DNA of 64,000 bases, taken from NCBI GenBank assembly GCA_016287865.1, contig JAEEXP010000003.1, forward strand, positions 701-64,700, written 5' to 3'. Each line of letters opens with the position of its first letter. The first letter of the stretch is position 1. Position numbers and translations under genes: made by a program. Shown piece after piece: positions 8,338 to 8,554 of the stretch. Below the pieces are notes generated by a model. The model saw nothing but the letters and a program-made list of their open reading frames with translations. It was not told the origin of the DNA and searched no databases. This DNA is from Bacillales bacterium. GTDB taxonomy: Bacteria > Bacillota_I > Bacilli_A > Izemoplasmatales > UBA1188.

Positions 8338-8367
8338 AAAAAAACACGAGTAACATCGTGTTTTTTT
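8338..8367 (+). terminator. Rho-independent terminator after tpiA (part of duplicated module, copy A)
   Basis: AACACGA-gtaaca-TCGTGTT followed by TTTTT. Confidence 0.85.
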
Positions 8368-8554
8368 GTTTCCTTATATAAAATTGGTCAGTTGTGAATA
8401 AATTGTAAATATTTAGGAGTTACTTTAATAAAACTAGTCAAATTACCTAATATTTCTCTGTTTTTGTTGCGCTTTTGTGGCACTCTTCATATTAATATGA
8501 AGCCAGAAAAAGAAAATAAAGTTATAAACGATAAATTTTATTGGAGGTAAAAAA
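8338..8554 (+). repeat. Duplicated upstream module, copy A (terminator, conserved leader with 18-bp palindrome, RBS)
   Basis: Aligns along its whole length with 11604-11814. The core (about 8423-8510) differs at only 2 positions. A perfect palindrome CTTCATATTAATATGAAG lies at 8485-8502. Confidence 0.85.

Follow-up and report, generated by a model that had tools for sequence, protein, structure and literature searches.

The window analyzed here is a stretch of 64,000 nucleotides in which two adjacent genes on the same strand, called gene A and gene B, encode paralogous surface proteins (Table 1). The two proteins are 44% identical, and both consist of an N-terminal hydrophobic segment, a domain of about 400 amino acids, helical repeats, a Pro/Thr-rich linker, which carries the motif DPTPG in gene A, and C-terminal membrane helices. 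Upstream of gene A lie pgk, a gene for an XRE-HTH/cupin regulator, and tpiA. The XRE-HTH/cupin gene is apparently co-transcribed with its two neighbors; it is the nearest candidate to encode a dimer that binds the palindrome described below, and no link between the two was found. An Rfam scan of the window returned a tRNA as its sole match.

Gene B opens with two adjacent ATG codons (11815-11820), and the second one, at 11818, is likely the true start because it leaves the same 7-nt RBS spacer as in gene A and agrees with a public gene call of 831 amino acids (P0003). If so, the start codon comes 7 nt after GGAGG in both copies, and the difference between their spacers pointed out by the sequence-only reading is probably not one of length.

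The DNA stretches that precede the two genes (8338-8554 and 11604-11814) align from end to end, such that they can be treated as one duplicated module, as the sequence-only reading had it. Identity between the copies changes along the module: it is 90% in the terminator segment, 84% in the AT-rich spacer, only 38% in a 13-nt block (8420-8432), 97% in the stretch that we call the pre-box (8433-8463), 95% in the repeat box (8464-8483), 100% over the following nine nucleotides and the predicted -10, and 83% from the -10 to the RBS; it then reaches 84% over codons 2-35 and drops to 51% over codons 36-48. The core differs between the copies by A/T at 8442, G/A at 8480, and one indel in an A run (A5 versus A4 after 8505). 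Where the two proteins share a residue, third codon positions agree at a rate of 0.88 in codons 1-30 and of about 0.45-0.8 in the rest, and these values and the 44% identity of the protein bodies agree with the earlier claim that the upstream module is better conserved than the genes it precedes. No conserved function was inferred for the segment between the tpiA terminator and the repeat box (8369-8463).

The closest homologous locus, L031, on a rumen contig from another strain or species, carries the same module and has a gene-A ortholog beside tpiA; its protein is 59% identical to gene B. Positions 8440-8463, nearly identical in copies A and B, differ at more than half of the sites in this orthologous locus. 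Several of the sites that distinguish A from B show the B state in L031, so the two copies were even more alike in the recent past. The near identity of the flanks (terminator, pre-box, leader, and the first 35 codons or so, synonymous sites included) is most likely due to gene conversion between the tandem paralogs, given the high synonymous identity in codons 1-30 and the divergence of 8440-8463 in L031. The gene-A ortholog of L031 (L031:249-1089) is interrupted after 121 codons, with about 35 codons missing and a frame shift, and it is either a pseudogene or the product of an assembly error.

Table 1. Features of the locus, in window coordinates.
Feature	Coordinates	Strand	Remarks
pgk	5805-6998		in the window
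XRE-HTH/cupin regulator gene	7001-7555		between pgk and tpiA, two genes upstream of gene A
tpiA	7565-8323
tpiA intrinsic terminator	8337-8368	+	opens module A; terminator scan, 13-pair stem and T run
AT-rich spacer, 13-nt variable block and pre-box	8369-8463	+	delimited by segment identities
Repeat 1, copy A, TTGTTGCGC	8464-8472	+
Repeat 2, copy A, TTGTGGCAC	8475-8483	+	offset by 11 bp from repeat 1
Perfect 18-bp palindrome, copy A, CTTCATATTAATATGAAG	8485-8502		covers the N9 spacer, the -10 and the next 4 nt
Predicted -10, copy A, TAATAT	8493-8498	+	9 nt downstream of repeat 2; all 7 sites of the genome have TAnnAT in this position, as do sites of other genomes
Predicted 5' UTR of gene A	8505-8554	+	start inferred from the -10 position; RBS GGAGG at 8543-8547
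Gene A	8555-11584	+	1009 aa, membrane-anchored surface protein
Gene A intrinsic terminator	11604-11629	+	opens module B
Repeat 1, copy B, TTGTTGCGC	11728-11736	+
Repeat 2, copy B, TTGTGACAC	11739-11747	+	G-to-A at repeat position 6
Perfect 18-bp palindrome, copy B, CTTCATATTAATATGAAG	11749-11766
Predicted -10, copy B, TAATAT	11757-11762	+
Gene B	11815-14313	+	832 aa, paralog of gene A
Bidirectional terminator	14309-14372		inverted repeat, between gene B and a convergent oxidoreductase gene

The direct-repeat box and its sites in the genome

The element of the core that recurs elsewhere is a tandem direct repeat, TTGTTGCGC-TT-TTGTGGCAC (8464-8483, and 11728-11747 in copy B), which is located upstream of the palindrome and was absent from the sequence-only reading. 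The two 9-bp repeats, 11 bp apart, have the consensus TTGTKGCRC, which can also be written as TGTnGC-N5-TGTnGC, and span about -41 to -22. The G-to-A change at 8480 is the sole core difference that falls inside the box and gives copy B the rarer GAC variant, found as well at the CstA promoter on contig C73; that the boxes of the two paralogs differ in their affinity for the regulator is speculation on our part.

A scan for sigma-70 consensus promoters found none on either strand of module A; in module B, it found one match on the minus strand and one on the plus strand (11787-11816) that overlaps the RBS and the start codon. The position expected for a -35 reads CGCTTT, such that there is no -35 hexamer and the box stands in its place. 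In the sequence-only reading, no convincing -35/-10 pair could be placed downstream of the core, which was consequently held to be probably a transcribed leader; a predicted -10 does lie inside the palindrome, 9 nt from the box. The core thus shows two repeats with a period of about 11 bp, located in the -35 region and followed at a fixed distance of 9 nt by a -10, as in class II activator promoters, and a candidate cognate winged-helix regulator is present in the genome and linked to a box (see below). From this arrangement, the conserved core is probably an activator-dependent promoter, with transcription predicted to start near 8505.

Mismatch and weight-matrix scans found the box and -10 layout at seven sites in the 1.33-Mb genome, with scores of 33-46 bits; the next best site scored 12.8 bits, and shuffled sequence gave none. 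An independent pattern search returned the same seven sites, and its reversed-pattern control returned zero. TAnnAT lies at the identical offset in every one of them, exactly 9 nt after repeat 2. Every site comes after a terminator or the end of a gene; a gene lies downstream of six of them, and a contig end truncates the seventh. In addition to genes A and B, the units headed by the box comprise a 1977-aa secreted repeat protein, a 67-aa peptide, an operon of carboxylesterase, glycerate kinase and hydrolase, the CstA transporter, and the unit cut off by the contig end. We infer from these sites that the two surface-protein paralogs belong to a seven-promoter regulon. The host assembly is a metagenome-assembled genome (MAG) with an estimated contamination of 6.7%, and its contigs C10, C16, and C73 are compositionally typical.

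Contig C10 contains a second duplicated module (C10:15440-15990; L100:10440-10990), made up of the 3' end of the 1977-aa gene (...NTKEEAEASKQA), a terminator, and the box; its repeat lies about 380 bp farther downstream, behind a 67-aa ORF that ends in ...NTKEEAEASKDI. This configuration points to joint duplication of gene end, terminator, and box as one block.

A candidate regulator and the distribution of the box

Three classical OmpR-type regulators (PF00486) are encoded in the genome, none of them beside a box. The same model missed P0022, a response regulator of contig C10 (8713-9480) that was found via the context of L079, a Clostridiales MAG locus where a PF06580 histidine kinase and a 252-aa regulator are located directly upstream of a box heading a surface-protein gene. 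P0022 likewise has a PF06580 kinase upstream (the pair lies at L100:2383-4484), and its gene ends 48 nt upstream of the box at C10:9529. The two regulators are 65% identical, and 73% identical in the C-terminal domain. The order kinase, regulator, box, and giant surface gene recurs (L079/L122, L121, L105, L102/L104, L116, L119, and L120), and an ortholog of P0022 with 62-75% identity is present in nine of the ten box-bearing genomes, two of the nine carrying an in-frame stop; the tenth, G064, is an incomplete MAG. None of the eight control genomes, which matched the box 18-mer by chance, has an ortholog. No box was found within 1.5-8 kb of the regulator loci L106-L108, L117, L118, and L123. 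On the basis of this synteny and co-occurrence, the box is most likely read by the two-component response regulator P0022, which would control the seven promoters of this genome and, in numerous Firmicutes of rumen and gut, comparable promoters of surface proteins. The three OmpR-type regulators and a paralogous pair on contig C43 could formally also be readers of the box, which counts against this assignment.

Pfam recognized only the receiver domain of P0022 and not its C-terminal domain. In an AlphaFold model (pLDDT 76.7), the C-terminal half is built of a beta-sheet, three helices, and a wing, and the best fold matches of the model are full-length OmpR/PhoB regulators, namely DrrB, VanR, PrrA, a PhoP-DNA complex, and MtrA. 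The first matches of a profile of the C-terminal domain were EmbR (E 0.013), DrrB (0.027), and AfsR (0.12-0.65), all marginal but in agreement with the fold matches. As modeled, P0022 is a receiver joined to a winged helix of the OmpR/SARP type. Strict membership in the SARP family was ruled out because P0022 lacks a BTAD domain (PF03704), which was found nowhere in the genome; about 40 residues follow the wing. One database source nevertheless names a homologue "two-component SAPR family response regulator". The protein collection holds more than 4000 homologues, many of them 72-77% identical and from MAGs labelled Acholeplasmatales or Clostridia.

The pairing of a PF06580 (LytS/YehU-type) kinase with a winged-helix regulator, and not with the usual LytTR or AraC-type one, is kept in all loci examined. 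The pair on contig C43 (L101:2867-5784) is also composed of a PF06580 kinase and a regulator with a similar diverged winged helix, 32% identical to P0022, and lies beside a Trp/Tyr permease and an HD-EAL protein. A literature search for a receiver with a SARP-like winged helix, without BTAD and with a LytS-type kinase, found no experimental work in the library searched.

The check proposed earlier, whether the core precedes other surface genes, came out positive for the box, both in this genome and in distant ones. An exhaustive protein search for genes A and B returned 16 family representatives, six of which (L030-L035) had their upstream DNA compared. L030, L032, L033, and L034, at 35-40% identity, are located on metagenomic contigs in unrelated neighborhoods, and all that they have in common with this locus is the repeats, the 9 nt, and TAnnAT. 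L035, at 31% identity, lacks the box and has a different palindrome upstream, GTTTCAAAGTGAAAC (L035:280-375), so the surface-protein family is not always under this regulator. The box also precedes large signal-peptide proteins and lipoproteins in other Firmicutes MAGs (Clostridia and Acholeplasmatales), and the same repeat period occurs at a minimum of 20 sites in other genomes (>=20). A scan of the genome collection with the box 18-mer gave 61 matches, about 12 of which are true box promoters; most of the 61 are chance or coding matches, such as a conserved Veillonella gene.

Among 60 related genomes, genes A and B have no close relatives, a pattern search found the box in none, and no intact regulator gene is present. 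Within the genus, no orthologous promoters were found except for a deleted remnant in G004. There, a deletion of about 5.8 kb, equivalent to window 8446 to 14264 (L004:1380-1450), starts a short way into the copy-A core, after AAACTAGTCAATTTAC, and extends as far as the last 16 codons of gene B; it removes the box and both surface-protein genes, and neither the regulator nor any box is present in G004. The locus varies between relatives and is dispensable. Another genus relative keeps only remnants, namely a stretch of 79-82 amino acids from the C-terminal membrane anchor of the surface family (L012:1524-1772) and a regulator pseudogene with two stop codons (G008:C6:35273-35578), the only trace of the regulator in the 60 genomes; these remnants suggest decay of the regulon.

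Alternative readings of the core

The palindrome in the core is perfect and stands at the two positions given for it by the sequence-only reading, which suggested it to be an operator for a dimeric regulator or as part of a structured 5' UTR. As an additional operator, it would serve a separate dimeric repressor that occludes the -10 and places A and B under dual control, which adds to the activator box and does not exclude it. An inverted repeat centered on the -10 in copies A, B, and L031 is a geometry typical of repressors, and the XRE-HTH/cupin gene lies only two genes upstream. Against this, the AT-rich center of the palindrome is simply the -10 region, and the palindrome alone is not beyond chance, as the genome has 24 perfect palindromes of at least 18 bp and its shuffles 14-18. 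A genome scan allowing up to four mismatches revealed no regulon, with only the two copies matching at two mismatches or fewer, and the palindrome is missing from the other five regulon promoters and from those of the distant homologues. It is conserved in L031, but inside a stretch from 8464 to the RBS that is similar throughout (background divergence about 6%), such that its conservation cannot be separated from the background similarity; a metagenome scan for further orthologous promoters gave four chance matches in GC-rich contigs. The palindrome is either a locus-specific operator or functionless: its existence over the -10 agrees with the earlier operator claim, no other evidence was found for it, and we consider the additional repressor site unlikely. 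For the structured leader, riboswitch- or attenuator-like, a hairpin bracketed by UUUCUCUG and CAGAAAAA can indeed be drawn, and minimum-energy folds include the palindrome hairpin. However, given the -10 at a constant 9 nt from the box, transcription is predicted to start near 8505, downstream of both bracket arms and of the palindrome, and since the palindrome overlaps the -10 upstream of that start, it could not act as RNA. No promoter was found upstream of the core, the fold z-scores (-0.87, -1.73, and -1.13) lie within the shuffle distribution, that of the predicted 5' UTR of gene A is -0.92, and Rfam has no match. The 5' bracket arm has diverged in L031 (TTCGTTAAA for TTCTCTGTT) with no compensating change in CAGAAAAA. 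Having neither a match to a known family nor a stable, compensated fold, the leader proposed earlier is highly improbable.

A further possibility is that an alternative sigma factor, and not an activator, recognizes the repeats. Similarity to the sigma-54 -24/-12 element TGGCAC-N5-TTGC is seen at many sites, several in the regulon reading TGGCAC-N5-TTGCG, and the rigid spacing and the sharply bimodal distribution of scores would also fit. The sites at this locus, however, read TTGCGC-N5-TGGCA or TGACA, without the GG of the -24, so that the -24 GG/-12 GC signature is missing; this genome has no Sigma54_DBD, and marginal matches to it appear in only 3 of the 60 relatives, sigma-54 being absent from the genome and from its order. 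Sigma-54 has no need for TAnnAT, yet TAnnAT is at a fixed distance in every examined site of the regulator-bearing genomes; moreover, 20 conserved bp exceed what a single -35 contact would cover, and the box co-occurs with a response regulator. We find an alternative sigma factor very unlikely. It could also be argued that recent duplication or gene conversion alone accounts for the conservation and that the core has no sequence-specific function; synonymous sites in codons 1-30 and the pre-box, which looks functionless, are near-identical too, and homogenization is certainly acting. This explanation is favored for the flanks and contradicted for the box, which recurs with its -10 spacing at five non-duplicate loci in the same genome and also in unrelated genomes from two Firmicutes classes; for the core as a whole it is extremely unlikely. 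The conservation of the box and the -10 across classes of Firmicutes shows that both are kept by selection. The earlier claim of a cis-regulatory site held by selection, gene conversion, or both is thereby supported, and we return to the activator-dependent promoter as the preferred reading.

An invertible or phase-variable promoter was considered and rejected, as there are no flanking inverted repeats other than the terminators and the palindrome. The longest relevant homopolymer is an A7 between the RBS and the start codon.

Proposed circuit and comparison with known systems

As an activator-dependent promoter, the core would make each module a self-contained transcription unit composed of the terminator of the preceding gene, a spacer, the promoter, a leader of about 50 nt, the RBS, and the gene. 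Phosphorylated P0022 would bind the two repeats (8464-8483) head to tail and recruit the sigma-A holoenzyme to the -10 in a class II manner, such that transcription would start near 8505. At the pho box of PhoB and the afs box of SARP regulators, repeats phased by 11 bp stand in for the -35 and leave about 9-10 bp to the -10, an arrangement that marks class II activation by a winged-helix dimer bound in tandem.

A broader idea, to which we give little weight, is that the kinase-regulator pair, the 20-bp box, and the surface cassettes it heads form a portable surface-coat regulon, in which the homogenized module is a recombination handle and the palindrome a paralog-specific repressor site. The parts of such a regulon would move and be lost together among rumen Clostridia and Acholeplasmatales-like Bacilli, and recombination at the handle (terminator, box, leader, and signal-peptide module) would place new surface-protein bodies under the same regulator. 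If true, this would explain why the regulator is 72-77% identical across classes (62-75% where tested directly) yet absent from 60 relatives, as well as the loss of box, both genes, and regulator in G004, the regulator pseudogene of G008, and the second duplicated module of C10.

Through this analysis, an anonymous repeat becomes a regulatory circuit of uncultured rumen and gut Firmicutes that can be tested, consisting of a defined 20-bp box, a candidate kinase-regulator pair, and a compact regulon dominated by giant surface proteins. The box provides a sequence handle for co-regulated surface and adhesin genes in metagenomes. The locus also illustrates that selection on a promoter and gene conversion, acting together, can give an upstream module the appearance of stronger conservation than its genes.

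The promoters activated by the SARP regulators of Streptomyces (the afs box of AfsR, and the heptamer repeats of ActII-ORF4 and DnrI) are read, as the box here probably is, by an OmpR-type winged helix. SARP sites are direct repeats with an 11-bp period that overlap the -35, take its place, and stop about 8-10 bp short of a sigma-A-type -10. The box has the same layout, and the nearest PDB sequence matches of the regulator's winged helix are EmbR and AfsR, the latter with chains in entries 8hvr, 8jke, and 8k60. Unlike the SARPs, P0022 has no BTAD, its winged helix is C-terminal to the receiver and not N-terminal, its partner is a PF06580 kinase, and it comes from a rumen Firmicute of low GC content; the repeats have another word, TTGTKGCRC, and instead of antibiotic pathways, P0022 would control surface proteins, a transporter, and an esterase. 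PhoB with its pho box and other class II activators of the OmpR/PhoB group resemble the predicted head-to-tail binding of P0022 to 11-bp repeats at -35. In that geometry, about 10 bp separate the -10 from the upstream repeats, which stand where the -35 would be, and the WalR site reads TGTWAH-N5-TGTWAH. P0022 departs from this group in a C-terminal domain too diverged for Pfam Trans_reg_C, in a kinase that is not the usual HisKA, in the word recognized, and in the regulon.

The locus as a whole resembles the vlp, vsp, and vsa families of Mycoplasma, in which tandem paralogs also share a near-identical promoter, leader, and signal-peptide region and have a diverged body; variability is a further likeness, the locus being deleted in G004 and disrupted in L031. 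It differs from them in having only two copies, with no phase-variable homopolymer or invertible element found, and in a promoter that it shares with unrelated genes via the regulator box. Set against these systems, the element is a real regulatory one of a known kind, probably an activator box promoter, that belongs to an uncharacterized regulator subfamily and was copied and homogenized between tandem surface-protein paralogs.
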